The notes under the pieces were generated by a model. The model saw nothing but the letters and a program-made list of their open reading frames with translations. It did not search any database and had not been told where the DNA came from. A stretch of DNA of 64,000 nucleotides, from NCBI GenBank assembly GCA_049968315.1, contig JBMFRA010000008.1, forward strand, positions 662 to 64,661. Direction: 5' to 3'. A program made the translations under genes and the position numbers. This DNA is from Acidobacteriota bacterium. GTDB lineage: Bacteria; Acidobacteriota; UBA4820; DSQY01. Positions 1 to 12,311 of the stretch are shown one piece after another. Position 1 is the stretch's first letter. The number at the start of each line of letters is the position of its first letter.

Positions 1-298
1 CCGAACCCCTCGGTGCGCCATTGTTAACCTGTAGGGGACGCTACCACAACTTGCCGCGGCTGTGCAAACCCGCGGGGATGGGCCAACGGGTTAGCCCGCC
101 GGGGAGCGCCGCGTTGAAAGACGGATCGGCCGCCCCTCCCGTTCTTTCTCTGCGCTCTTTGGGCTCTCTGGGGCGAGGAGCGCCCGAAAGGCGGCAAAGC
201 CAGAACTTCTATACCTCAGCGCCGCAGCGGTGAAATCCTTCCGTTTGCCTTCGAAGGGCTGCCTTCACCTTCCTAACTTCCTCACTTCCTCACTTTCC

Positions 299-1096
299 TC
301 ACGCCTCTTCGTTTTCGCTCACGCTGGCCTCCAGCCGGCGGATGGCGAGGCACGCGAGGCCCACGAAGAGCACCCCGTAGAAGACGAGGAAGAGCAGAGC
401 GGCGGTCTTGCTCTCGGTGGAGGCGAGGAGCTGCTGGATGAGCCCCTGGGGCCCGGCCCCGTGGGGAAGCAGGGTGTGCAGGTGGAAGAGGAGGGTGAAG
501 CGCTTGAGGAAGCCGGGGATGTAGCCCACCAGGTTTTCCCAGCCGAAGCCGATGAGCAGTCCGGCGAAGAGGGGCTTCTTGAGGAGCAGGCCCAGGAGGA
601 CGAAGAGGGCCCCGTAGGCCAGGACCCCCAGCAGGAGGACGCCGAGGTCCAGGAGGAGGAAGGGGAACTCCCGGAGGAGGGCCGCGGCGCCGCCCTCCGA
701 GACCCCCAGAAGAAAGGCCCCCGCCGCCGACGCCCCGTTCAGGATCCAGAGAAAGGCCGCCGTCGCGGCGAAGCGCGTGAGGAGGAGCTTGGCGCGGGGG
801 ATGGGCCTTCCCAGGAGGTACGGGAGGGTCCCCCCCTCCCGGTCGTCGGCCAGGAGCCCCACCCCGAAGACCAGCGTGGAGAGGGGAAGGAGGAAGCCGA
901 AGAGGTACACCAGCACCACCGAGGCGTAGAGGGTGACGCCCCCCAGGGGGACGGGAACCCCCTGGAGGACCAGCAGGCGCAGGAGGAGGGTCACGGCCCA
1001 GGGGAAGGCCGCCAGCAGGGCGAAGAGGAGCCCCCGGACCGAAAGGGCCGAACGGCGGAGGGTGTGGCGGAGGAGGGCCCGGGTGGCGGCGTCCAT
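299..1096 (-). CDS. ABC-2 type transporter permease (multi-pass membrane protein)
   Basis: Hydrophobic 265-aa product with about six predicted TM segments. It lies 2 nt downstream of an ABC ATPase gene, as in ABC-2 exporter operons. Confidence 0.7.
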   Translation of the reverse strand: MDAATRALLRHTLRRSALSVRGLLFALLAAFPWAVTLLLRLLVLQGVPVPLGGVTLYASVVLVYLFGFLLPLSTLVFGVGLLADDREGGTLPYLLGRPIPRAKLLLTRFAATAAFLWILNGASAAGAFLLGVSEGGAAALLREFPFLLLDLGVLLLGVLAYGALFVLLGLLLKKPLFAGLLIGFGWENLVGYIPGFLKRFTLLFHLHTLLPHGAGPQGLIQQLLASTESKTAALLFLVFYGVLFVGLACLAIRRLEASVSENEEA

Positions 1097-1097
1097 C

Positions 1098-2012
1098 TCA
1101 GGCCACCAGGTAGGCGAAGACCGCCGAGAGGTTGTCGTCCAGGGGGTTGAGGATCTCCAGTCCCATCTCCCGCTCCGAGAGGAGGATCTTCAGGCGCTCC
1201 CGGAAGTCGGCGGCGTCCGAGACCTCCACGGTGAGGTTCCTCCCGTCTCCTCCGAAGGAGACCGAGGCCACCGACGGCCAGGCGATGAGGGCCGCCGCCA
1301 GGGCCCGGGCATCCCGGGAGCGGACGAAGACCTTGAGGGGCCTGGAGGCGATGGCCTTCCGAACCTGCGGGACCTCCCCCGAGGCCAAGACCCGGCCGTA
1401 GTGGAGGAGCAGGATGCGGCTGGTCATGGCCTCCACCTCGTGGAGCAGGTGGGAGGAGACCAGGACGCACCGGCCCTCCCGCCCCCACCGCTGGATGGTG
1501 GCGACGGCCTGGGCCCGGCTCGGGGGGTCCATCCCGTTGAGGGGCTCGTCCAACAGGAGGATCTCCGGGTCGTGGACCAGCGCCTGGGCCATCTTGACCT
1601 TCTGCCGCATCCCCTTGCTCATGGCGGCGATCTTCCGGGACCGCTCCTCCCCCAGGGAGACCTCGTCGCAGGCCCGTTCGGCGCGCTTCAGGGCCTCCCC
1701 CCGGGGAAAGCCCGAGAGGCCGGCCAGGAAGGCCACGAACTCCACCCCCGCCATCTCCTCCCAGAAGCGGTCCGCCGCGGGGCAATTCCCGATCCGGCGG
1801 AGGGCCCGGGGGTTGCCGAAGACCGGCCGGCCGTCCAGGGTCACCGACCCGGCGGTGGGGCGGAGGAGGCCCGCCAGGAGGTTCAGCAGGGTGCTCTTCC
1901 CCGCCCCGTTGACCCCCAGGAGTCCCGTGACGCCGGGTTCCAGGACCAGGGAGACCCGGTTGACCCCCACCACGAGGCCGTACCAGCGGGAGGCGTTCTC
2001 CGCTCGGATCAC
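1098..2012 (-). CDS. ABC transporter ATP-binding protein
   Basis: Walker A GVNGAGKST, ABC signature MSKGMRQK and Walker B LLLDEPLNGMDP. The start overlaps the upstream permease stop. Confidence 0.88.
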   Translation of the reverse strand: MIRAENASRWYGLVVGVNRVSLVLEPGVTGLLGVNGAGKSTLLNLLAGLLRPTAGSVTLDGRPVFGNPRALRRIGNCPAADRFWEEMAGVEFVAFLAGLSGFPRGEALKRAERACDEVSLGEERSRKIAAMSKGMRQKVKMAQALVHDPEILLLDEPLNGMDPPSRAQAVATIQRWGREGRCVLVSSHLLHEVEAMTSRILLLHYGRVLASGEVPQVRKAIASRPLKVFVRSRDARALAAALIAWPSVASVSFGGDGRNLTVEVSDAADFRERLKILLSEREMGLEILNPLDDNLSAVFAYLVA

Positions 2013-2890
2013 CGCAGCACCCCCTTTCCGCGGAAGCGGACCGCCAGGACCAGGAGGCTCGCCGCCGCCAGGGCCGGGAAGAAGAGGAGGGGTGCGCCCG
2101 GGGGCAGGACCGGCCCGCCCCGGCCGGCGATCTCGGCCCCCAGGCAGACCACCGCCAGGGTCTTCAGCTCCGTGAGGATGGAGGGGTACCAGACCACGGG
2201 CAGGCGGGTGACGGCGTAGAGGACCCCCGACGCGGCGGGGCCGAGGAAGACGATGCCGAAGTAGGTGAGGCCCGTGAGCCGTGGGTTCTTAGAGAGGGAG
2301 GAGAGGGCGAGGAGAAAGAGGACCAGGGGGCCGCACCCCAGGAGGGCGAAGAGGAAGGTGCCCCAGAGGACCCGCCCGTGGGCGAAGAGCCAGCCCAGAT
2401 CCCCCGTGAGCCCAACCTGGAAGAGACAGAGCAGGAGGACCGGAACGACGGAGAAGAGGAGGAGGAAGAGCCCCAGCGCGGCGCCCTTCGCCCAGAGGTA
2501 CGCCGGGGCCGAGAGGGCCCGGCCCAGGAAGACGCCGAGGGTCCCGTCCTTCCGGTCCCGGGCGACGAGTCCCGAGCCCACCCAGATGGTGACGAGGGTC
2601 AGGAGGAAGAGGTTGTAGCCGTTGCCCAGCAGGGTGGACACCAGTGCCTCGTCCACCTCAGGAAGTTCCGCCACGAAGGCCTTGACGCTGGGCGAATCCC
2701 CCAGCTGGGTGTGGAAGAAGGTGAGAAGGATCCCCCAGATCCAGGGCAGGAAGGCCAGGCCCAGGAGAAGGAGGAAGCGGCGTTTGCGGAGGTACGGCAG
2801 GACCTCCTCCCGGAAGAGGGGAATCCACCGCCGGGAGAGGGAAATCCGCTCTCCGCCGTACCCCTGGTACCCCTGATCAAAGACCGGCAC
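2009..2890 (-). CDS. ABC-2 type transporter permease
   Basis: 293-aa polytopic membrane protein sandwiched between two ABC ATPase genes with 4 to 14 nt overlaps. Confidence 0.7.
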   Translation of the reverse strand: MPVFDQGYQGYGGERISLSRRWIPLFREEVLPYLRKRRFLLLLGLAFLPWIWGILLTFFHTQLGDSPSVKAFVAELPEVDEALVSTLLGNGYNLFLLTLVTIWVGSGLVARDRKDGTLGVFLGRALSAPAYLWAKGAALGLFLLLFSVVPVLLLCLFQVGLTGDLGWLFAHGRVLWGTFLFALLGCGPLVLFLLALSSLSKNPRLTGLTYFGIVFLGPAASGVLYAVTRLPVVWYPSILTELKTLAVVCLGAEIAGRGGPVLPPGAPLLFFPALAAASLLVLAVRFRGKGVLR

Positions 2891-3818
2891 GGTGCTCCTC
2901 CCCGTTCTTCTCCAGGACGTCGAGGAAGACCCGCTCCAGGGAGGTGGCCTCCCGGACGAGCCGGGTGATGCCGCCCTCCACCCGCCGGCCCAGGGCGAAG
3001 ACCGCCTGCAGGGTCTCCCCGGGGGGAAGGACCACCCGGAAGAGGCCGCGCCGTCCTTCCTCCACGGTGTACCCGGCCTCCCGGAGGGCCCCCACGAAGG
3101 CGGCCCCGTCGCCCTCCCACTGGACCAGAAAGTGCTGGGCCTCGGCCCGGGTCCAGTCCTCCACGGAGGCGTCCCTCAGGAGTTGGCCTCGGTGGAGGAT
3201 GAGGACCCGCGAGCATACCGCCTCCACGTCCTTCAGGATGTGGGTGCACAGGAGGAGGCTCTTTCCCGCCTCGGCGAGGTCCTTGAGGAGGGCCAGCATC
3301 TCCTCCCGGCCCACCGGGTCCATGCCGGAGGTGGGCTCGTCCAGCAGGAGGAGGTCGGGGTCGTGGACCAGCGCCCCGGCCAGCTTCAGCCGCTGCTGCA
3401 TACCGGTGGAGTAGGTCTCCACGTTCCGGTACCGGATCTCCCCCAGGCCCACGAACTGGAGCACCTCGTGGGCCCGCTCCACCGCCGCGTTCCGCCGAAG
3501 GCCCGAGATCTCCCCCAGGAGGGCCACCCAGGCGACGCCGCTGAGGCCCGGACGGACCCCTTCCCGCTCGGGAACGTACCCCACCCGGTCGCGGAGGGCC
3601 GCCCCAGCCCCCTGGAGGGAGCCCCCCGCCCGGAGGGTCACCGAACCGCCAGCCGGCGGCACGAGGCCCAGTACGGCCCGGATCAGGGTGGACTTGCCCG
3701 CTCCGTTGGGGCCCAAGAGCCCCACCGCACCGCCGTCCAGTGCGAAGGTGACCCCCCGGAGGGCCTCCCGCTTTCCGTACCGGACGCGTAGATCCTGGAC
3801 CTCCAACATCCCGCCCAT
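2877..3818 (-). CDS. ABC transporter ATP-binding protein
   Basis: Walker A GPNGAGKST, signature YSTGMQQR and Walker B LLLDEPTSGMDP. Confidence 0.88.
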   Translation of the reverse strand: MGGMLEVQDLRVRYGKREALRGVTFALDGGAVGLLGPNGAGKSTLIRAVLGLVPPAGGSVTLRAGGSLQGAGAALRDRVGYVPEREGVRPGLSGVAWVALLGEISGLRRNAAVERAHEVLQFVGLGEIRYRNVETYSTGMQQRLKLAGALVHDPDLLLLDEPTSGMDPVGREEMLALLKDLAEAGKSLLLCTHILKDVEAVCSRVLILHRGQLLRDASVEDWTRAEAQHFLVQWEGDGAAFVGALREAGYTVEEGRRGLFRVVLPPGETLQAVFALGRRVEGGITRLVREATSLERVFLDVLEKNGEEHRAGL

Positions 3819-3827
3819 GCCCCTTCC

Positions 3828-5387
3828 TTACGGGGGAGCCGTCCCCGAGGTTTCAGGGGAAGGGGGAGGACTCCGCCGAAGCTTGCGGTAGGCCTTCCGA
3901 AAGCGCCCCAAACGCTCCCCAAGGTCCGCCCGGGCGGCGGCCGCCGACTGCCAGAACCCCTGGAGGAGCGCGCCGGCGGCCAGGAGCTCCCCCTCCGGCG
4001 CCCTCCCCGCCTCCACGGCCCTGCGAAGCCGGACGGCGGCCACCACCGCGTCCTGGTGGGCGCCGAGGGCCTCCTGGAGGTCCACCGCCGCGGCGATGAG
4101 GTCCTCCGCCTCCTGGGGAAGGACCTCTCGAAAGAACTCGGCGGCGTACCGGGCCCGCTTGAAGAGAATGCGCAGGCGGTGGAGGGCTTCGGGGGCGGGG
4201 TCGGGTCCCAGGGCCTCCGCCGCCGCCAGGGCCCGTTTCCCCGTTCGGCGGACCAGCCGGCGGGCGGCCTCCGAGGTCCTCTCCGCCGCCGCCCCCCGCG
4301 GCCTGGAGGGCGGGGGGGAGAGGACCAGCCGGCGGATTCGCTGGAGCAGCCGGTGAAAGCGGCGGCTGGAGAGGCCCTCCCTCAAGGCTTCCAGCGCCCC
4401 GGCCCGCTCCCCCGCCACCACCGCCCGCAGGGTATCGGGCCCCGGGAGCCCGGGGGGGAGCCTTGCCGCCTGCCGGTCCCAGGCCGCAAGGAAGACGTCC
4501 AGGTCCCGCACCTCCCCCAGGAGGCCCGCCGCCCACCGCAGCTCGGCCCTAAGGGACTCGGACCGCCGCGGCCCCAGGGCGGGCCCCAGTAGGCGCAGGA
4601 GGGTGCGGGCCCGCCGGGCGGCCACCCGCGCGTCGTGGACGAACTCGGGGTGAAGGTCCCCCAGGGCCCAGGGGACGTTGGCCTCCAGGCGGGAGAGCTG
4701 GCGTCCCAGGAGCCGCCTTCCGGCGGCGGAGAGGGGCTCCTCCGGCCGGAGGGGGCTCTCCGCCCGCGCCTCCCGGGAGGGATCCCCGGGGCCTTGCCCC
4801 CGCCGCAGCTGGGAAGCGAGGTCCCCCTCCGCCGGCTTGAGGCCGGCGCGGTCCCGGAGCAGGACCTCCAGATGGCCGAGGCTCGCCGCTCCTTCCGCGG
4901 AAGCCGCCGCCACCTGGAGCAGCGACGGAACCCCGCCACCCTCCCGGGGCGCGGGGGCCTGGACCTCCGCCCGAAGGGGCCTTCCCGTGGGGGAGCGGAG
5001 GGTGAAGGAGCGGATCCGGAGGTGCGCCGCCGCCAGGGGGACGAGGGGTTTCGCCCCCAGGAGCCCCCCCCGGCCCGCCGGGACCTCCCAGGAGGCGGGG
5101 TCCAGCACGGGGCCAAAGGGGGCCTTCCCCATCCCCCGGGCCAGATCCTCCTCCCGGCCCGAGGGGTGGACGAGGACGAGGCGCCAGGCCTCCCGCTCCT
5201 CCCACAGGAGCAGGCGCAGGCCTTGCCGGCCCAGCCGGCCGTCGGCGGTGTCCCAGAAGACCGCTCGCCCCGAGACCGACCCCGAGGGCGTGAGGCGGTA
5301 CCCCGCGGCGGCGAGGTGCCTCCGGGCCCGCTTCCACCCGGCCCCGCCGACTTCGAAGCGGAGGGGCGGCGGCTCAGGGGTCGTCAT
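3828..5387 (-). CDS. CYTH-domain plus CHAD-domain protein (inorganic triphosphatase / polyphosphate-granule associated, YgiF-like architecture)
   Basis: The N-terminal about 200 aa resemble the CYTH triphosphate tunnel fold (EVGGAGWK start). The C-terminal half is helical with His/Arg-rich motifs (HDARVAARRARTLLRLL, LHRLRILFKRARYAAEFF) typical of CHAD. Confidence 0.65.
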   Translation of the reverse strand: MTTPEPPPLRFEVGGAGWKRARRHLAAAGYRLTPSGSVSGRAVFWDTADGRLGRQGLRLLLWEEREAWRLVLVHPSGREEDLARGMGKAPFGPVLDPASWEVPAGRGGLLGAKPLVPLAAAHLRIRSFTLRSPTGRPLRAEVQAPAPREGGGVPSLLQVAAASAEGAASLGHLEVLLRDRAGLKPAEGDLASQLRRGQGPGDPSREARAESPLRPEEPLSAAGRRLLGRQLSRLEANVPWALGDLHPEFVHDARVAARRARTLLRLLGPALGPRRSESLRAELRWAAGLLGEVRDLDVFLAAWDRQAARLPPGLPGPDTLRAVVAGERAGALEALREGLSSRRFHRLLQRIRRLVLSPPPSRPRGAAAERTSEAARRLVRRTGKRALAAAEALGPDPAPEALHRLRILFKRARYAAEFFREVLPQEAEDLIAAAVDLQEALGAHQDAVVAAVRLRRAVEAGRAPEGELLAAGALLQGFWQSAAAARADLGERLGRFRKAYRKLRRSPPPSPETSGTAPP

Positions 5388-6108
5388 CGGAGGCTTTCCG
5401 GCCCTCGGCGAAGGCCTCGACCCCCCGGGCCCCCGCCCGCCGTTCCCGGAGGTCCCGCACCACCCGCTCCACGGGGTAGGTGAAGCGGACGATCTGCGCC
5501 CGGGCGCGGCCTCCCTGGAATTGGGCCACGGCGAAGGCTCCCCGGGGGTCGCCGTCCACCGGCTTGCCCACCGACCCGCAGTTCACCACCAGGACCCCCC
5601 CCACGCGGCGGGTGAAGGGGAGGTGGGAGTGGCCGCAGACGAGGACGTCCGGGCGCGCGCCGCCGAGGAACGCCTCCAGGGCCGCCGCCGTGAGGCTCGG
5701 GTAGAGGTAGTCGGTGTCCTTCCGCGGGCTCCCGTGGACCACCAGGACCCGATGCCCCTGGAGGTCCAACTCCAGGCGCTCGGGAAGGCCCTCGAGAAAG
5801 CGCCGCTCCTCCTCCCCGAGCTGGAGGGCTGTCCAGGCCAGGGGGCCGAGGTTCCTCTTCGGAAGAAGCTTTCGGAGTTTCCGGGGGCTCTCGGCCAGGA
5901 GGCCGAGGACCTTCCGCTCCACGTTCCCCCGGATGCAGAGGACGCCCCGCTCCTTCAGGAGCCTCAGCACCTCCACGGGGTGGGGGCCGAAGCCGACCAG
6001 GTCCCCGGCGCAGACCACCCGTTCCGCCCCCCGCCGCCTGGCGGCCTCCAGGGCCCGCCACAGGGCGGGGAAGTTGGCGTGGACGTCGGAGAGGAAGAGG
6101 ACCTTCAC
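5374..6108 (-). CDS. Calcineurin-like metallophosphoesterase (YfcE/MJ0936 family)
   Basis: Motifs LSDVHAN, GDLVGFGP, GNVE and GHSH. ATGA-type start/stop overlap with the upstream gene. Confidence 0.8.
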   Translation of the reverse strand: MKVLFLSDVHANFPALWRALEAARRRGAERVVCAGDLVGFGPHPVEVLRLLKERGVLCIRGNVERKVLGLLAESPRKLRKLLPKRNLGPLAWTALQLGEEERRFLEGLPERLELDLQGHRVLVVHGSPRKDTDYLYPSLTAAALEAFLGGARPDVLVCGHSHLPFTRRVGGVLVVNCGSVGKPVDGDPRGAFAVAQFQGGRARAQIVRFTYPVERVVRDLRERRAGARGVEAFAEGRKASDDDP

Positions 6109-6473
6109 GGCAGCAGGACCTCCTCCAGCGCCTCCAAGAAGGCCTCCAGCCGGGCGAGGTCCTTGACCCGCCCCTTGGAAGGCTTCACCTTGAGGGCCGC
6201 GGCGGCCCGCCGGAGGCGCCTCAGCCGCTCCGCCGGGGGAAGGACGGGGGGCTCGGGGAGCCCTTCTCCGGTGAGGGCCTGGAAGAGGGCCGCGGCCCGT
6301 CCCTCCAGGCGGGCGGAGACCGCTTCCCCCACCTCCCGCACGAGGCCCCGGGCCCGCTCCACCTCCCGGGCCAGGGCCAGGGCCTCCTCCCGCTTCCCAG
6401 GCCGCGCCTTGGGTTTCTTGCCCGGGAGCCCCTTCCCGGTCTCCCGCTTCACCGGGTCGGTTCGTTCGGCCAT
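6105..6473 (-). CDS. Hypothetical protein (122 aa, Lys/Arg-rich N-terminus, helical)
   Basis: ORF packed between the Tmk-like gene (4-nt gap) and the metallophosphoesterase (4-nt overlap). No recognizable domain; coding status supported only by operon packing. Confidence 0.45.
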   Translation of the reverse strand: MAERTDPVKRETGKGLPGKKPKARPGKREEALALAREVERARGLVREVGEAVSARLEGRAAALFQALTGEGLPEPPVLPPAERLRRLRRAAAALKVKPSKGRVKDLARLEAFLEALEEVLLP

Positions 6474-6477
6474 GGCG

Positions 6478-7176
6478 TCACCCCCGTCCGTCGGCCAGCA
6501 CCCGCCGCACCCCCTCCACCAGGTCCCGGTGGATGGCGGGGGCCGTGCGGTTTCCGTTCACCACCGTAAAGCCGTAGGGGCCGGCCATCCGCTGGAACTC
6601 CCGGCGGATCCGGCGCTGGTAGGCGAGAAAGCTCTGGAACCAGTCCCTCCCCAGGCCCAGGTCCATTCCCGATTCCCAGTAGTCCAGTTGGTCCCGGGAC
6701 TCGAAGGTGCGCTCGATGAGGGTGGTCATGGAGACGGAGAGGAAGAAGACCACGTCGGGCACGAGGGCCATGCCGTAGAGGGACCGCAGCCACTCGGCGT
6801 CGGCCCCCCGGACCAGGTCCCGCACCATCAGGGTGTAGATGTACCGGTCCGCCAGCACCACGAAGCCCGCCCGGAGGGAGGGGCAGATGATGTTTTCCAG
6901 CTGGTCGTAGAAGTCGGTGGCGTAGAAGAGGCTCATGGTCCTGGGGCTGAGGACGTTGCCCTGCTTGGCCCGCTCCAGCTCGGGACCCACCAGGGGGGAT
7001 CGCTTGAGGCCCACCTGGGCCACGGCGTACCCCTGCTCCTCCAGCCACTGGGAGAGGAGGGAGACGTGGGTGGACCGGCCGGAGGAGTCGGGGCCCTCCA
7101 CCACCACCAGCCATCCGGACAGCTTGGAGAGGTCCACCCCCGCCGGGGGGTGGGTGTAGCACCGCTTGCCGCTCAT
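6478..7176 (-). CDS. Thymidylate kinase (dTMP kinase)-family P-loop kinase, paralog 2, with degenerate Walker A (GPDSSGRST)
   Basis: Start MSGKRCY at 7176 with ATGA overlap to the upstream paralog stop. Motifs VVVEGPDSSGRST, YATDFYD, LADRYIYT and shared YWESGMDLGL. Confidence 0.6.
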   Translation of the reverse strand: MSGKRCYTHPPAGVDLSKLSGWLVVVEGPDSSGRSTHVSLLSQWLEEQGYAVAQVGLKRSPLVGPELERAKQGNVLSPRTMSLFYATDFYDQLENIICPSLRAGFVVLADRYIYTLMVRDLVRGADAEWLRSLYGMALVPDVVFFLSVSMTTLIERTFESRDQLDYWESGMDLGLGRDWFQSFLAYQRRIRREFQRMAGPYGFTVVNGNRTAPAIHRDLVEGVRRVLADGRG

Positions 7177-7859
7177 CGTGCGTACCTCTTGTGGAAGAAG
7201 GCCAGGTCCACCTTCTCCGCCAGGATCTTCCGGATCCACTTCTGTTGGGCGTGGACGGGGAGGGTGGCGTCCACCTCCGTGAATCCGAACTCCGGCACCA
7301 TGGCGAGGTACTGTTCCAGGACCCGCCCCTGGAAGATCCGGAAGCTCTCCTGGGGGTCCGGGTGGAGGCCCAGGTCCATCCCCGCTTCGAAGTACTTGAG
7401 CTTGGGTCTCCCTTCCAGGATGCGCCCCAGGGCCGTCACCAGGGGCAGGCGGAAGAAGAAGACCACGTCCGGCGGAACGGCGAAGCTGTAGAGGCGGCGC
7501 AGCCAGCCGCCGTCGCAACCCCGCACCGCGTCCCGGGCGAAGGAGGTGTAGATGTACCGGTCGCAGAGGACCAGGTACCCCGCCCGCAGGAGGGGATGGA
7601 TCTGGCGCTCGTACCGGTCGGCGAAGTCGGTGGCGTGGATGAGGCTGAAGGTGGTGGGGGTGAGGAGCTGCCGCTTCTTGCCCTTCCGCGTGGCCTCCCG
7701 CACCAGGACCGAGGAGTTCCACTCGGAGAAGAAGACCCGGTACCCCCGGGCACGGAGCCACTGGTTCAGGAGGTGGATCTGGGTGGACTTTCCCGACCCG
7801 TCCAGCCCCTCCACGGCGATGAGCCGGCCGGGGTAGGCGTGCTCCGGTGTTCCGTTCAT
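7173..7859 (-). CDS. Thymidylate kinase (dTMP kinase)-family P-loop kinase, paralog 1 (canonical Walker A)
   Basis: Start MNGTPEH at 7859 overlapping the ppx stop (ATGA). Motifs IAVEGLDGSGKSTQ, HATDFADRY, LCDRYIYTS and YFEAGMDLGL. Confidence 0.65.
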   Translation of the reverse strand: MNGTPEHAYPGRLIAVEGLDGSGKSTQIHLLNQWLRARGYRVFFSEWNSSVLVREATRKGKKRQLLTPTTFSLIHATDFADRYERQIHPLLRAGYLVLCDRYIYTSFARDAVRGCDGGWLRRLYSFAVPPDVVFFFRLPLVTALGRILEGRPKLKYFEAGMDLGLHPDPQESFRIFQGRVLEQYLAMVPEFGFTEVDATLPVHAQQKWIRKILAEKVDLAFFHKRYAR

Positions 7860-9502
7860 GGGGCTCCCTCCACCACCGAAACCTCCACCGCCGTTCCGAA
7901 GGTCCGCCGGAAGAGGTCGGCCTTTCGCTTCATGGACCAGCCCTCCAGCAGGAGGTCGCCCTCCCCCTCTACCGCCAGGCGAACGTGCCCTTCCTGGAAG
8001 GAGACCTCCACCCGGTGGACCCGCTGGCGGTGCTCCCGGTCCAGGGCGTCGGCCAGCCGAAGGAGGGAAGCGAGGACCCGCACGGTGCGCCTCTCCCGGC
8101 GGTCCAGGAGGGCGAAGGACTCGTGCTGGGGTTTGGGGGGACTCCTCCGGTGGTACCGTGCCACGTTGGCCACCAGGAGGGTCTCCCGGGGCGAGAAACC
8201 GGCCAGCTCGCTGTTGGCGATGAGGTAGAGGCTGTGCTTGTGGTGCCGGTTGTAGCTCACGAAGGTGCCCACGTCGTGGAGAAGGGCCGCCGCCTGCAGG
8301 ACGGCCCGTTCCGGCGGCCCGAGCCGGTGGAGCTCCTTCGTCTGGTCGAAGAGGGAGAGGGCCAGGCGGGAGACGTGGCGGCCGTGGCTCTCGTCGAAGC
8401 CGTACTTCCGCCCCACGGGAAGGGCCGCCGCCTCCACCTCGGCCTCGCTCCGGCCCCCCCCGTCTCCTCCCCCCCAGGCTTCGGCCAGTTCCAGGACCAC
8501 CCCCTCCCGCAGGCCCACGAAGGGGACCCTTATCTCCCGGGCCCCCGCCAGGCGGGCCAGGCGAAGGTACACCAGCGCCGCGGGAAGGATGACGTCCGCC
8601 CGGTCCTCGCGGATGCCCAGGGTCTCGATCCGCTCCCGGTAACCCAGGGCCGCCAGCCGGCCCGTCAGGCGCTCCAGGACGCCGACCCCCAGCCTCGCCA
8701 CACCGCCCTTCTCCCGTGGGCAGAGGGCCAGGGCGGCCAGGGCTTCGGCGTTCCCCCCGGTGGCGATGCAGCCGAGGTTCATTCCCGAGAGGTCCCGGTG
8801 GAGGCGGAGGGTCCCCACGTACTCCGACAGGAGGCGCGGCAGGCGCCCGGCGTCGTCGGCGGCGGCGGCCAGCTCCTCCAGGAGGCGGACGGCCCCCATG
8901 GTATGTGACTCGCTCCAGAGGATCCCCGCCCGGTCGGCGAGGGCCACCTCCACGCTCCCCCCCCCCACGTCCACCAAGAGCCACCGCCGGGTTCCCAGGT
9001 CCATCCGGTGCTTCACCGCCCGGTAGACCAACCGTGCCTCCTCCGATCCGCCGATGGGTTCCAGCCGGATGCCGGCGCGCTCCCGGACCTCGGCGAGGAA
9101 GGCCTCCCCGTTCCGGCTTTCCCGCACCGCACTGGTGGCCACGGCGCGGTAGCGGGCGATGCCCAGGTCCTCCATCCGGCGCCGGTACTCCGAGAGGACC
9201 GCCACCGCCCTGGCGGCGGCCTGGCCATCGAGCTCCCCCCGGACGAAGACCCCGTGCCCCAGCCTCACGGGGCTTCGGCCCGCCTCCAGGACGTCGCAGG
9301 TGCCGCCGGAGAGGAAGCGGGCGGCGAGGAACCGGATGGCGTTGGATCCCACGTCCAGGGCGGCGCACCGAAACTCTCCACCCCCCAAGCCCCCCGCCGG
9401 GGGTGCCTCCGCCGGGATTTTTCCGCCGCTGGCTTTCCGAAGCCTGGCCGCCAAGGATGCCTCCCCCGCCCTTCTGCCCGATCTTCGTTTCTTTTTCAAC
9501 AT
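7856..9502 (-). CDS. ppx: Exopolyphosphatase / guanosine pentaphosphate phosphohydrolase (Ppx/GppA N-terminal domain + HD domain)
   Basis: FRCAALDVGSNAIRF and LLVDVGGGSVEV (ASKHA-fold Ppx/GppA motifs). The C-terminal part has LLHDVG ... HHKHS (HD domain). The start chosen is MLKKKRR at 9502; an upstream in-frame Met at about 9577 is an alternative. Confidence 0.85.
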   Translation of the reverse strand: MLKKKRRSGRRAGEASLAARLRKASGGKIPAEAPPAGGLGGGEFRCAALDVGSNAIRFLAARFLSGGTCDVLEAGRSPVRLGHGVFVRGELDGQAAARAVAVLSEYRRRMEDLGIARYRAVATSAVRESRNGEAFLAEVRERAGIRLEPIGGSEEARLVYRAVKHRMDLGTRRWLLVDVGGGSVEVALADRAGILWSESHTMGAVRLLEELAAAADDAGRLPRLLSEYVGTLRLHRDLSGMNLGCIATGGNAEALAALALCPREKGGVARLGVGVLERLTGRLAALGYRERIETLGIREDRADVILPAALVYLRLARLAGAREIRVPFVGLREGVVLELAEAWGGGDGGGRSEAEVEAAALPVGRKYGFDESHGRHVSRLALSLFDQTKELHRLGPPERAVLQAAALLHDVGTFVSYNRHHKHSLYLIANSELAGFSPRETLLVANVARYHRRSPPKPQHESFALLDRRERRTVRVLASLLRLADALDREHRQRVHRVEVSFQEGHVRLAVEGEGDLLLEGWSMKRKADLFRRTFGTAVEVSVVEGAP

Positions 9503-9598
9503 AGCGGTTTTTCTCTTCCGAAGCAATCGGGGCTCCCCTTTCCACCCCTTTCCTTTCCCGGCGATCGGGCGCATACTGAACCGGATGTGAAGGAAGGG

Positions 9599-9632
9599 AT
9601 ATCCACAACCTGTGGAAATAACTGTGAATAAA
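9599..9632. promoter_or_regulatory. Three DnaA boxes immediately upstream of dnaA start (ATATCCACA; TGTGGAAAT = ATTTCCACA rc; TGTGAATAA = TTATTCACA rc)
   Basis: Direct match to the TTATCCACA consensus with 1 to 2 mismatches each, at 9599-9607, 9611-9619 and 9624-9632. The last box ends 2 nt before the dnaA ATG. Confidence 0.7.
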
Positions 9633-9634
9633 CC

Positions 9635-10975
9635 ATGAGCCACCGCCTGTGGGCCCAGATCCTGGAAAAGGTGAAATCGAGGGTACCGGAGAGCACCTAC
9701 GCCTCCTGGTTCAAGCCTCTCAAGCTCCTTCGTGTGGAGGAGTCCCAGGTGGTTCTCCTGACCCCCAACCCCCTCTTCCGGGAGTGGCTCGAGAGCCACT
9801 ACCGGGGGGTTTTGGAGGAGGCCGCCGCCGACGCCGGCCACCCTGGGCTGGCCATCTCCTTCGAGGACGGCCCCGGGGAGGAACTGGTCCTCCAGCCGGA
9901 GCCCGCCCCCAAGGCCTCCTCCCGGAAGGAGAAGGCCCCTCCCGCCTCCTCCCCTTCCGATCCCCTCTTCAACCCCCAGTACCGCTTCGACACCTTCGTG
10001 GTGGGCCCCTCCAACCGCTTCGCCTTCGCGGCCTGCCTGGCCGTGGCCCAGAATCCCTCCCGCTCCTACAATCCTCTCTACATTTACGGCGGCGTCGGTC
10101 TCGGAAAGACCCACCTCATGCAGTCCATCGGGGCGGAGATCAAGCGGAACAACCCCGATCTGAAGGTCTGCTACCTGTCCACCGAGCGGTTCATGAACGA
10201 GATGATCGCGTCCATCACCCACCGGAAGCAGCACGAGTTCCGGGAGCGCTACCGCCGGGCCGACGTGATCCTCCTCGACGACGTCCAGTTCCTTTCGGGC
10301 AAGGAGGGGACCCAGGAGGAACTCTTCCACACCTTCAACGCCCTCCACGAATCCCAGCGCCAGATCGTCCTCTCCTCTGACTGCCCTCCCCGGGATCTGC
10401 ACAGCATCGAGGAGCGCCTGCGCTCCCGCTTCGAGTGGGGCCTCATCGCCGACATCCAGCCCCCGGAGCTGGAGACCAAGGTGGCCATCCTGTACAAGAA
10501 GGCCGAGGCCTACCGGGTCGCCCTCCCGGAAGAGGTGGCCCTCTTCATCGCCGGGCGCATCAAGAGCAACATCCGGGAGCTGGAGGGTTGCCTCCTCCGG
10601 CTCATCGCCTTCTCCTCCTTCAAGGGCCTTCCCATCACCGTGGACCTGGCACGGGAGACCTTCGAGAGCCTCTTCAAGGAGGACGGCCGGGCCCCCACCA
10701 TCGAGTCCATCCAGCGCCACGTGGCGGCCTACTACAAGATGCGCCTCCAGGACCTCAAGGCCCGTACCAACAAGGCCAGCATCGTGCTGCCGCGCCAGGT
10801 GGCCATGTACCTCTGCAAGGAGCTGACCTCCTGCTCGCTGCCGGAGATCGGCCGGAAGTTCGGGGGCAAGCACCACACCACCGTCCTCCACGCCATCCGG
10901 AAGATCGACGAGCAAGCCAAGAAGGATCCCAACCTTCAACAGGCTATCCACAACCTAGTTCGTTCCATTCGCTGA
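9635..10975 (+). CDS. dnaA: Chromosomal replication initiator protein DnaA
   Basis: Full-length DnaA with AAA+ Walker [11 protein letters not shown], sensor motifs and a C-terminal DNA-binding domain (HTTVLHA). ATG at 9635. Confidence 0.97.
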
Positions 10976-10989
10976 GGAAAGGGACGTTC

Positions 10990-11140
10990 GGTGGAAAAGG
11001 TGCCTTGGAAAAACTGTGGAAAAGCCTGGGGGTGTTTCCAGGGGGGTCTTTTCCTCGCCCTCCACGGAGTTCTCCACAGTACTCCGGCGACCTGCAACTT
11101 CGGCCCGCCGGGACCTCCGGTACTTTTCCACAGATCCACA
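10990..11140. promoter_or_regulatory. DnaA-box cluster in dnaA-dnaN intergenic region (candidate oriC part)
   Basis: Boxes TGTGGAAAA (11016-11024, rc TTTTCCACA), TTCTCCACA (11070-11078), TTTTCCACA (11124-11132) and AGATCCACA (11132-11140), plus weaker GGTGGAAAA (10990-10998). A CTATCCACA also sits at 10944-10952 inside the dnaA 3' end. Confidence 0.6.
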
Positions 11141-11183
11141 GCCCCTACTACGGCTACTGCCTCTATCTAAGGGGAGAGATCCT

Positions 11184-12307
11184 ATGGAGACGAGAATCGA
11201 AGCCCGGAGCCTCCTTTCCGAACTGACGCTGGCCCAGGGGATCGTCGAGTCCAAGGCCACCATTCCCATCCTGGCCAACTTTCTGCTGAGAACCACAGAA
11301 AACGCCTTGGAGATCGCCGCCTCGGACCTGGAGGTGACCCTCCGCTGCCGCTGCCCCGCGGAGATCCTGGAGGAGGGCGGCGTCACCGTTTCGGCGAAGA
11401 AGTTCTCCTCCCTCGTCCGGGCCTTTGCGGGCCTGGAGGGGCGGCTCTCCGTCAAGACGACGGCCCAGGGAAGGCTCTTCCTCCAGCCGGAGGGGGGGCG
11501 CCAGGAGTACCACCTGCAGACCCTTCCGCAAGAAGACTTCCCCACCCTTCTCTCCCCCGACGGGGGCAAGAGCCTGGAGCTCCCCATGGAGGCCCTCAAG
11601 CGGTGCATCTCCGAAGCCCTGGTCTCGGTGGGGGTGGAGGAGAGCCGCTTCTCGGTCCGGGGGGGGCTCCTGCTCCTGGAGAGCGGGCGCCTGGCCCTGG
11701 TTTCCACCGACTCCCACCGCCTGACCTACACCGAGTGGCTGGGCCCCGTGGGGGTGGAGGAGCCCATGCGCCTTCTCGTGCCCCGGAAGACCCTGACGGA
11801 GTTCCTCAAACTGGATGGGGAGGAGAAGGTCCGGGTCTCCTTCCGGGACAGCACCATCTTCCTGGAAACGGGAAACCGCCTTCTCTACAGCCGCCTCATG
11901 GACACCACCTTCCCGGCCTGGGAAAAGGTGATCCCCCAGGGTTCGGACAAGCTGGCGGTGATGAACCGGGCGGAACTCCAGGAGCGCCTGCGGCGGGTTT
12001 CCAACGTGGCGGAGTCCAAGACCCGGGCCGTGATCCTCTCCTTCGACCCGGCGGGGAGCCTCGAGGTCCTGGCGCGGAATGCCGAGACGGGGGACGAGGG
12101 GAGGGAGTACCTCTCCTGCGAGCGGTACGAGGGCGAGGCGGTCCAGCTCCTCTTCAACGCCGACTACATTCTGGACTTCCTGGGGGCCTGCTCCGAGGAG
12201 AAGGTCCGGATGGCCATGAAGGACGGGGAACACCAGGCCCTGCTGCAGCCGGTGCGCCCCGAGGGGGCTCCCCAGCACCAGTACGTCATCATGCCGTTGA
12301 GGTTTGA

Positions 12308-12311
<4 letters not shown>
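11184..12311 (+). CDS. dnaN: DNA polymerase III beta sliding clamp
   Basis: Start METRIEAR at 11184 preceded by AGGGGAGAG; the listed ORF start at 11016 is an upstream extension. Three-domain beta-clamp sequence. Confidence 0.93.

Follow-up and report, generated by a model that had tools for sequence, protein, structure and literature searches.

Two adjacent thymidylate kinase-like genes of an Acidobacteriota bacterium as predicted catalytic and regulatory subunits of the polyphosphate kinase PPK3

Why should two thymidylate kinase (Tmk)-like proteins be encoded side by side next to an exopolyphosphatase gene (ppx), with one of the two carrying an arginine in place of the lysine of its Walker A motif (P-loop)? 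This question is raised by a stretch of 64,000 nucleotides from an Acidobacteriota bacterium (NCBI GenBank assembly GCA_049968315.1, contig JBMFRA010000008.1, positions 662 to 64,661 of the forward strand), the whole of which is referred to here as the window. An initial annotation had described the two open reading frames (ORFs), which we call paralog 1 and paralog 2, as tandem, diverged members of the thymidylate kinase family at 6478-7859. These coordinates are exact, both products match the Pfam family PF02223 (Thymidylate_kin; 73.9 bits for paralog 1 and 60.5 bits for paralog 2), and the two share 44% sequence identity (167 bits, E = 1e-56), far above chance. The motifs listed there are also all present, namely P-loops with GSGKST in paralog 1 and the arginine-bearing GPDSSGRST in paralog 2, a DRY motif in both, and a shared YxExGMDLGL motif that reads KYFEAGMDLGL in paralog 1 and DYWESGMDLGL in paralog 2. 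Judging from sequence comparisons, we consider it likely that the ORFs specify the two subunits, catalytic and regulatory, of the polyphosphate kinase PPK3, and that a bacterial PPK3 operon has here been misannotated as containing two dTMP kinases. The locus would be a new member of the published PPK3 family, located in an Acidobacteriota polyphosphate operon. What is new here is the breadth of the family, a Walker A arginine combined with a retained DRY motif as a general hallmark of the regulatory subunit, and a conserved small ORF.

Relationship of the paralogs to archaeal PPK3 and to thymidylate kinase

The PPK3 family was first described in archaea by Hofmann et al. (J Biol Chem 2026; PMC12995831). 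The heteromeric polyphosphate kinase of Sulfolobus acidocaldarius is the product of two "thymidylate kinase" genes located by ppx. Saci_2019 (cPPK3, or c) is the catalytic subunit, which made polyphosphate (polyP) from ATP and no dTDP; Saci_2020 (rPPK3, or r) on its own showed neither polyphosphate kinase nor dTMP kinase activity, with only trace ADP formation, and raises the activity of Saci_2019 about ten-fold in an alpha2-beta2 tetramer (PMC12995831). The archaeal enzyme favours the reaction polyP + ADP -> ATP, its genes are arranged as sixA-ppx-Saci_2019-Saci_2020-CHAD, and the real dTMP kinase of this organism, Saci_0893, is encoded elsewhere (PMC12995831).

Paralog 1 is 48% identical to Saci_2019 (S. 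acidocaldarius locus L081; Saci_2019 at L081:5001-5639), and Saci_2020 is matched better by paralog 2 (110 bits) than by paralog 1 (72 bits). Profile hidden Markov models of the c and r classes were built from the window and loci L001-L080 only, with no Sulfolobales sequences. With these profiles Saci_2019 scores 262 bits for c versus 182 bits for r, and the three Sulfolobales catalytic subunits together (Saci_2019, Metallosphaera sedula c and STK_15430 of Sulfurisphaera tokodaii) score 248-265 versus 171-182 bits. The order is reversed for Saci_2020, with 134 bits on the r-profile versus 90 bits on the c-profile, and for the set of Saci_2020, M. sedula r and S. tokodaii r, with 134-153 versus 88-90 bits. 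Thermus thermophilus Tmk reaches about 55 bits on both profiles. A neighbor-joining tree rooted on the T. thermophilus enzyme recovers the c clade with 90% bootstrap support. By these comparisons the window ORFs are orthologous to Saci_2019 (c) and Saci_2020 (r).

The gene order points in the same direction. The window operon consists of ppx, c, r, a small ORF (orf122), a YfcE-type phosphoesterase gene and a CHAD-domain gene, and shares with the S. acidocaldarius operon neighbouring genes for Tmk-fold paralogs with c ahead of r, ppx directly upstream and CHAD further downstream. It differs in having no sixA, in including orf122 and the phosphoesterase gene, and in belonging to a bacterial host.

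Among proteins of solved structure, the closest relative of both window ORFs is STK_15430 (ST1543) of S. tokodaii, which was deposited as a dTMP kinase (PDB 2plr, 4nzy, 4rzx, 5h70) and has been reinterpreted as a cPPK3 homolog. In phmmer searches of PDB sequences, paralog 1 matches 2plr/5h70 with 202 bits (E = 9e-59) and canonical Tmks with at most 53 bits; the corresponding values for paralog 2 are 134 bits and at most 47 bits. An AlphaFold2 model of paralog 2 (pLDDT 88.5) also has 5h70 as its best PDB match (TM-score 0.81-0.93), ahead of canonical Tmks. The initial annotation had doubted that a housekeeping tmk would be found in duplicate next to ppx, and this doubt is borne out by a cPPK3 homolog being matched so far above canonical Tmk. 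STK_15430 is of the catalytic type, with 47% identity to window c and 34-35% to window r, so that neither an r subunit nor the complex is among the solved structures.

Canonical Tmks (TIGR00041, PF02223) share the fold, P-loop, DR(Y/H) motif and lid arginine with the window pair, yet they are only about 20-27% identical to it, and their TREPGG and F-x-x-x-R dTMP-site motifs are replaced. TREPGG and LLFSADR of T. thermophilus Tmk align with SEWNSS and LIHATDF in c and with VGLKRS and LFYATDF in r. We take the LLFSADR segment to bear the thymine-stacking phenylalanine and the dTMP-contacting arginine; with these assumed roles, the dTMP-contacting residues are gone in both paralogs. A further difference from canonical Tmk is that genes of the window type come obligatorily as a c/r pair, in linkage with polyP genes.

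The NCBIfam equivalog model for dTMP kinase, TIGR00041, has a cut-off of 83.25 bits, and both paralogs fall under it (82.9 and 69.8 bits). However, this model is a weak discriminator of dTMP kinase and cPPK3, since Saci_2019, which is experimentally not a dTMP kinase, scores 105.8 bits. Because of this score, TIGR00041 also probably accounts for "dTMP kinase" being given systematically as the name of cPPK3 and rPPK3 genes in metagenome-assembled genomes (MAGs).

The comparison with other families proposed in the initial annotation gave a Tmk fold only, with the cPPK3 homolog as best match. Neither paralog matches PF03976 (PPK2) or PF01712 (deoxynucleoside and deoxyguanosine kinases, dNK/dGK) at E <= 0.01, apart from a 15-bit P-loop match to TIGR03708, and membership in PPK2 or dNK was rejected. 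An anti-phage defence role was likewise considered and discarded, with PADLOC returning only weak PDC-M51B matches at the level of the P-loop (25 and 20 bits). An analogy between PPK3 and two-domain class II PPK2 such as PA3455 of Pseudomonas aeruginosa has been drawn by Hofmann et al. (PMC12995831). Both combine an inactive P-loop-kinase module with an active one and use polyP to phosphorylate nucleotides; class II PPK2 differs in that it belongs to another family, its modules are fused domains and not subunits, and its substrate is AMP, not ADP.

Residue signatures of the two subunits and the Walker A arginine

Residues that distinguish the two classes were compared in 79 c and 82 r sequences. 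The Walker A position is lysine in 100% of c and arginine in 99% of r. The ATP-site motifs of cPPK3 (Walker A Lys, DRY and lid R146) are intact, each in 99-100% of the c sequences. Conserved only in c are E46-W-N-S-S, K61, H75, R151, Q206 and R210. The R82-Y-E-R85 segment of c (DRYER) corresponds to DQLEN in r and to DQTEN in Saci_2020, so that window r and Saci_2020 share a DQxEN motif, and both also have aspartate at the lid position of K155 in c, as do 99% of r. All six of the basic residues found only in c (K61, R82, R85, R151, K155, R210) are basic in Saci_2019 too, which fits the published finding that polyP-cleft residues are conserved in c and not in r (PMC12995831). In window r, Q92 and N95 occupy the positions of R82 and R85, D165 that of K155, and r sequences vary where c has K61, R151 and R210. 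Kept in both classes (c numbering) are the aspartate of GxDxxG, DRY, R109, R113, lid R146, E158 and D162. The r class has a conserved basic pair of its own, K58/R59 in GLKRS, where c has EWNSS.

With the P-loop Lys, DRY and c-specific basic residues all kept in window c, as in the archaeal subunit, a mechanism can be proposed. cPPK3 would bind ATP or ADP through the P-loop lysine, the DRY arginine and the lid arginine, and a cleft of c-specific lysines and arginines, lying where Tmk has its dTMP pocket, would face the end of the polyP chain. By analogy with the archaeal enzyme, the phosphoryl group would be shuttled reversibly between ATP and polyP, with polyP + ADP -> ATP as the favoured direction. 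rPPK3, with neither the Walker A Lys nor the c-type basic cleft residues, would act as a non-catalytic partner that assembles with c, possibly as alpha2-beta2 as in S. acidocaldarius, and boosts its activity. Translational coupling could give a fixed c:r ratio, and Ppx, the CHAD protein, the YfcE-type phosphoesterase and the conserved small protein would be made from the same operon. The polyP phosphotransferase activity, its direction and the subunit stoichiometry we infer from the Sulfolobus enzyme.

The arginine of the r P-loop is not a peculiarity of the window. Among the top 120 paralog 2 homologs (of thousands), which are 64-94% identical to it, P-loop Arg and DRY are each found in 120 of 120; the degraded and unconserved pseudogene that the initial annotation had allowed for is not what we find. 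Paralog 2 remains 56-70% identical to its counterparts in distant phyla. P-loops read from representatives at 50% identity (n = 84) have Arg in 72 r-class members, Cys in 6, Lys in 1 and other residues in 5, with Val and His among the replacements seen in some r-class members; c-class representatives have Lys in 35 and Thr in 1. A Nitrososphaera r subunit has the P-loop GPDASGRST together with DRY. The three Sulfolobales r subunits all have DGY, with the P-loops GSEGSGRTY in M. sedula, GIEGSGRTA in S. tokodaii and GIMSSGKTT in S. acidocaldarius, so two of the three carry the Walker A Arg. In the sequences compared here, a residue other than Lys at the Walker A position, usually Arg, marks r throughout the family, and the Lys-to-Arg P-loop singled out in the initial annotation is the right diagnostic of the r subunit.

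Hofmann et al. attribute the inactivity of r to loss of the DRX arginine (PMC12995831). This lesion is not present in window r, which keeps ADRYIYT; DRY is conserved in 99% of the 82 r sequences, and DGY occurs only in the three Sulfolobales r subunits. By this alignment, the change from DRY to DGY describes Sulfolobales r subunits and not the family. Saci_2020, the only r assayed, is atypical among the r sequences aligned, with Lys kept and DRY lost, and its Walker A Lys looks secondary. Window r differs from Saci_2020 in both of these respects, with Arg for the Walker A Lys and DRY kept, and also in a conserved N-terminal extension of about 20 amino acids. The Walker A residue of r subunits is unmentioned in the main text of PMC12995831 or in its preprint (the supplement was outside this check). 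The typical r differs from the one studied in having a Walker A Arg and an intact DRY, which raises a testable question about how the regulatory subunit works.

Several points weigh against reading the pair as catalytic and regulatory PPK3 subunits. The function is assigned by comparison with a single characterised enzyme, which is archaeal and about 48% (c) and 32% (r) identical; the r clade including Saci_2020 has a moderate bootstrap value of 54.5%; the shortfall of paralog 1 against TIGR00041 (82.9 versus 83.25) is marginal; and the 64-kb window has no third Tmk-like ORF. In addition, an "inactive scaffold" is not established for window r, because it is free of the published DRX lesion and its catalytic motifs other than the Lys-to-Arg change are at least 98% conserved. 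The active/pseudo-kinase pair put forward in the initial annotation is upheld in so far as the Arg copy is the counterpart of regulatory rPPK3; the inactivity of an Arg-type partner is the part that does not follow. The heterodimer suggested there gives way to an alpha2-beta2 tetramer in the characterised complex. The idea of a catalytic protein with a regulatory partner also agrees with our results, and its predicted function, polyphosphate:ADP/ATP phosphotransfer in place of phosphorylation of nucleotide monophosphates, had not been named.

The strongest alternative leaves the pair as PPK3 and concerns only the role of r. The Arg-type pocket, made of the Arg P-loop, DRY, lid Arg and K58/R59, may still take up a ligand with phosphate groups, be it polyP or, for sensing of the energy charge, a nucleotide, and r could then regulate, hold the substrate or carry out a slow second catalytic step. 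We regard this as possible, although clearly less probable than not. Proteins with a Walker A Lys-to-Arg replacement usually still bind nucleotide. Other features that would fit a binding site are that conservation of r falls little short of that of c (0.62 versus 0.67 mean pairwise identity over the same genomes), that the pocket residues are each at least 96% conserved in r (D30, R34, T36, D88, D91, D110-R111-Y112, R119, R123, R156, E168, D172), that the lysine is replaced nearly always by Arg (72/84, with 6 Cys) and not at random, and that r has its specific conserved basic pair in GLKRS. However, the six c-conserved basic residues are absent from r, and the Cys, Val or His at the Lys position in some r subunits and the degenerate r domains of fusion proteins (see below) argue that catalysis is dispensable. 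Saci_2020 alone, moreover, was without polyphosphate kinase or dTMP kinase activity and showed only trace ADP formation (PMC12995831).

A bolder version of this idea, to which we give similarly limited credence, is that the Arg P-loop is the ancestral and near-universal state of r, that r is a functional phosphate-binding module and not a dead scaffold, and that uncultured Verrucomicrobiota, Acidobacteriota and Gemmatimonadota have in PPK3 a major polyP enzyme. If this were true, r would sense nucleotides or the energy charge, or would hold polyP and in this way set direction or processivity.

Distribution, gene fusions and alternative functions of the pair

A representative library of 1.84 billion proteins contains 197 cluster representatives that match paralog 2 at E < 1e-30, and at least 559 stretches encode relatives, from which the best 80, with one genome per species, were taken as our sample of loci. 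Bacterial loci in this sample belong to Verrucomicrobiota (the largest group), Acidobacteriota, Gemmatimonadota, Spirochaetota, Planctomycetales, Myxococcales, Fibrobacteres, Bacteroidota, Sumerlaeota and Goldiibacteriota; Thermoplasmata and Halobacteriales archaeal MAGs are also included. The presence of PPK3 in bacteria has been described as "a few taxonomically scattered bacteria", based on 47,545 GenBank genomes (PMC12995831). As judged by homologs, with the sampled loci extending across many phyla, the family is much broader than this. The c/r pair is thus widespread in soil and freshwater phyla and routinely annotated as "dTMP kinase". Correct annotation alters what is inferred from metagenomes about polyP metabolism, phosphate cycling and energy buffering.

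Of the 80 loci, 78 have r as the next gene after c, in the same orientation, and the remaining two are cut off by contig edges. An NTGA overlap between the c stop and the r start is present in 56 of 79 loci. In Acidobacteriota-like, Gemmatimonadota, Spirochaetota and Thermoplasmata loci ppx is directly upstream of c; in Verrucomicrobiota loci a weaker Ppx-like gene is located downstream of the pair. A module of orf122, phosphoesterase and CHAD genes recurs in Acidobacteriota-type loci. One locus with a Verrucomicrobiota-like c/r pair (L077, CALQJI020000019.1) is labelled "MAG: Klebsiella pneumoniae" and is probably a mislabelled or contaminated bin.

Natural fusions of the two subunits were also found, where PMC12995831 mentions one possible fusion only. 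P0241 from Alicyclobacillaceae (460 amino acids) has c followed by r, with GSDYSGHY as the P-loop of the r domain; when this protein was included in a MAFFT alignment, r homologs aligned on its c half. P0246, P0283, P0296 and P0305 (620-696 amino acids) combine c, a degenerate r and a Ppx/GppA domain III (HD). Together with the NTGA overlaps, these fusions give indirect support, at the level of gene structure, for a physical complex of c and r.

A cPPK3-like domain occurs apart from any r domain in three further fusion proteins, P0368, P0378 and P0382, which were retrieved with window positions 6481..7176 as query. This domain is 47-48% identical to paralog 1, has WNSS, KKxK and a normal P-loop, and is accompanied in all three by DUF2252/APH-like regions, which are the only other regions in P0378 (Elusimicrobiota). 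P0382, a metagenome protein, also includes an MFS transporter. P0368, from a transcript of Ancoracysta twista (EukProt EP00164), has an N-terminal SPX domain as well, and contamination or mis-assembly is possible; the SPX fusion, if genuine, would tie a PPK3-type kinase to eukaryotic phosphate sensing.

These distributions bear on what else the pair could be. A (deoxy)nucleotide monophosphate kinase of other specificity, for example a heteromeric one unrelated to polyP turnover, would account for the Tmk fold, the PF02223 matches and the first deposition of STK_15430 as a "dTMP kinase". We consider it improbable. The monophosphate-site motifs are replaced, there is no dNK or PPK2 Pfam match, the association with Ppx and/or CHAD is seen repeatedly in different phyla, and Ppx domain III is part of the same polypeptide in some relatives; in addition, Saci_2019 (48% identity to paralog 1) turned ATP into polyP and gave no dTDP (PMC12995831). 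The notion that paralog 1 is a housekeeping thymidylate kinase and paralog 2 its degenerating tandem duplicate, for which one could cite the NCBI name of both paralogs, the closeness of paralog 1 to the TIGR00041 cut-off and the lack of another Tmk-like ORF in the 64-kb window, is hardly credible, as decay of paralog 2 is incompatible with 56-70% identity across distant phyla and an invariant Arg, the pair is syntenic in 78/80 loci, paralog 1 groups with the proven non-dTMP kinase Saci_2019, TIGR00041 does not discriminate, given that Saci_2019 exceeds its cut-off, and PPK3-bearing genomes carry a canonical dTMP kinase elsewhere (PMC12995831).

Neighbouring genes and operon organization

The features of the locus are collected in Table 1. 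Window G+C is about 70%, and the contig is 65,586 bp long; both paralogs are entered at NCBI as "MAG: dTMP kinase [Acidobacteriota bacterium]". ATGA overlaps join the ppx stop to the paralog 1 start and the paralog 1 stop to the paralog 2 start, and the stop of orf122 overlaps the phosphoesterase start as GTGA. A promoter and terminator scan of positions 1..10200 gave nothing exceeding shuffled expectation.

Table 1. Positions in the window of the predicted PPK3 genes, their motifs and the surrounding genes
Feature	Position	Strand	Remarks
ABC-transporter ATPase genes (two) and ABC-2 type permease gene	299..3818	-	9 nucleotides past the CHAD gene
CHAD-domain protein, 519 amino acids	3828..5387	-	PF05235 180.7 bits, residues 226-455; N-terminal ~220 amino acids (4713..5387) without family match
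YfcE-type metallophosphoesterase, 244 amino acids	5374..6108	-	PF12850 97.9 bits; TIGR00040 60.3 bits (cut-off 56.25)
orf122, small basic helix-rich protein, 122 amino acids	6105..6473	-	4 nucleotides past the r stop
Paralog 2, predicted rPPK3, 232 amino acids	6478..7176	-	MGC8762589.1, NCBI name "dTMP kinase"
rPPK3 DRY, retained (D110-R111-Y112)	6841..6849	-	
rPPK3 P-loop GPDSSGRST	7069..7095	-	Arg34 codon CGG at 7075..7077 replaces Walker A Lys
Paralog 1, predicted cPPK3, 228 amino acids	7173..7859	-	MGC8762590.1, NCBI name "dTMP kinase"
cPPK3 DRY (D100-R101-Y102)	7554..7562	-	
cPPK3 P-loop GLDGSGKST	7782..7808	-	Lys24 codon AAG at 7788..7790
ppx (exopolyphosphatase, Ppx/GppA + HD domain III)	7856..9502	-	PF02541 138 bits, PF21447 109 bits; start uncertain (9502 or further downstream)
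dnaA	9635..10975	+	
dnaN	11016..12311	+	

The start of the polyP operon is divergent from dnaA, at a distance of about 60-130 bp, and the operon adjoins the likely replication origin region, where dnaA and dnaN are followed by more large plus-strand ORFs. This adjacency is probably lineage-specific, because no loci other than those of the two closest Acidobacteriota MAGs share it (L002/L003, 6201..7649).

The YfcE-type phosphoesterase gene is kept downstream in Acidobacteriota-type loci. The N-terminal domain of the CHAD protein has no Pfam match in the window protein or in nine orthologs, and a single-sequence AlphaFold2 model of it was unusable (pLDDT 33.8). A profile search of the PDB gave a weak top match to BH2851 (2gfg; E = 0.058) over a "DTxDGrL..rG.rLR" segment. 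2gfg is presumably a CYTH-like protein, and the domain may be a degenerate CYTH domain that has no clear ExExK motif.

The small ORF between r and the phosphoesterase gene, orf122, has no Pfam or NCBIfam match and is listed by NCBI as "hypothetical protein ACP5VN_02975". Its product has a Lys/Arg/Pro-rich N-terminus and a helical C-terminal part. Distant homologs with the common motif LK(V/L)KPxKGRxKDLxRIE were found at the same position in 16 loci, from Acidobacteriota, Gemmatimonadota, Spirochaetota, Goldiibacteriota, Sumerlaeota, Bacteroidota and one Halobacteriales MAG. This conserved small ORF is flagged here as a possible additional component of PPK3 operons in bacteria.

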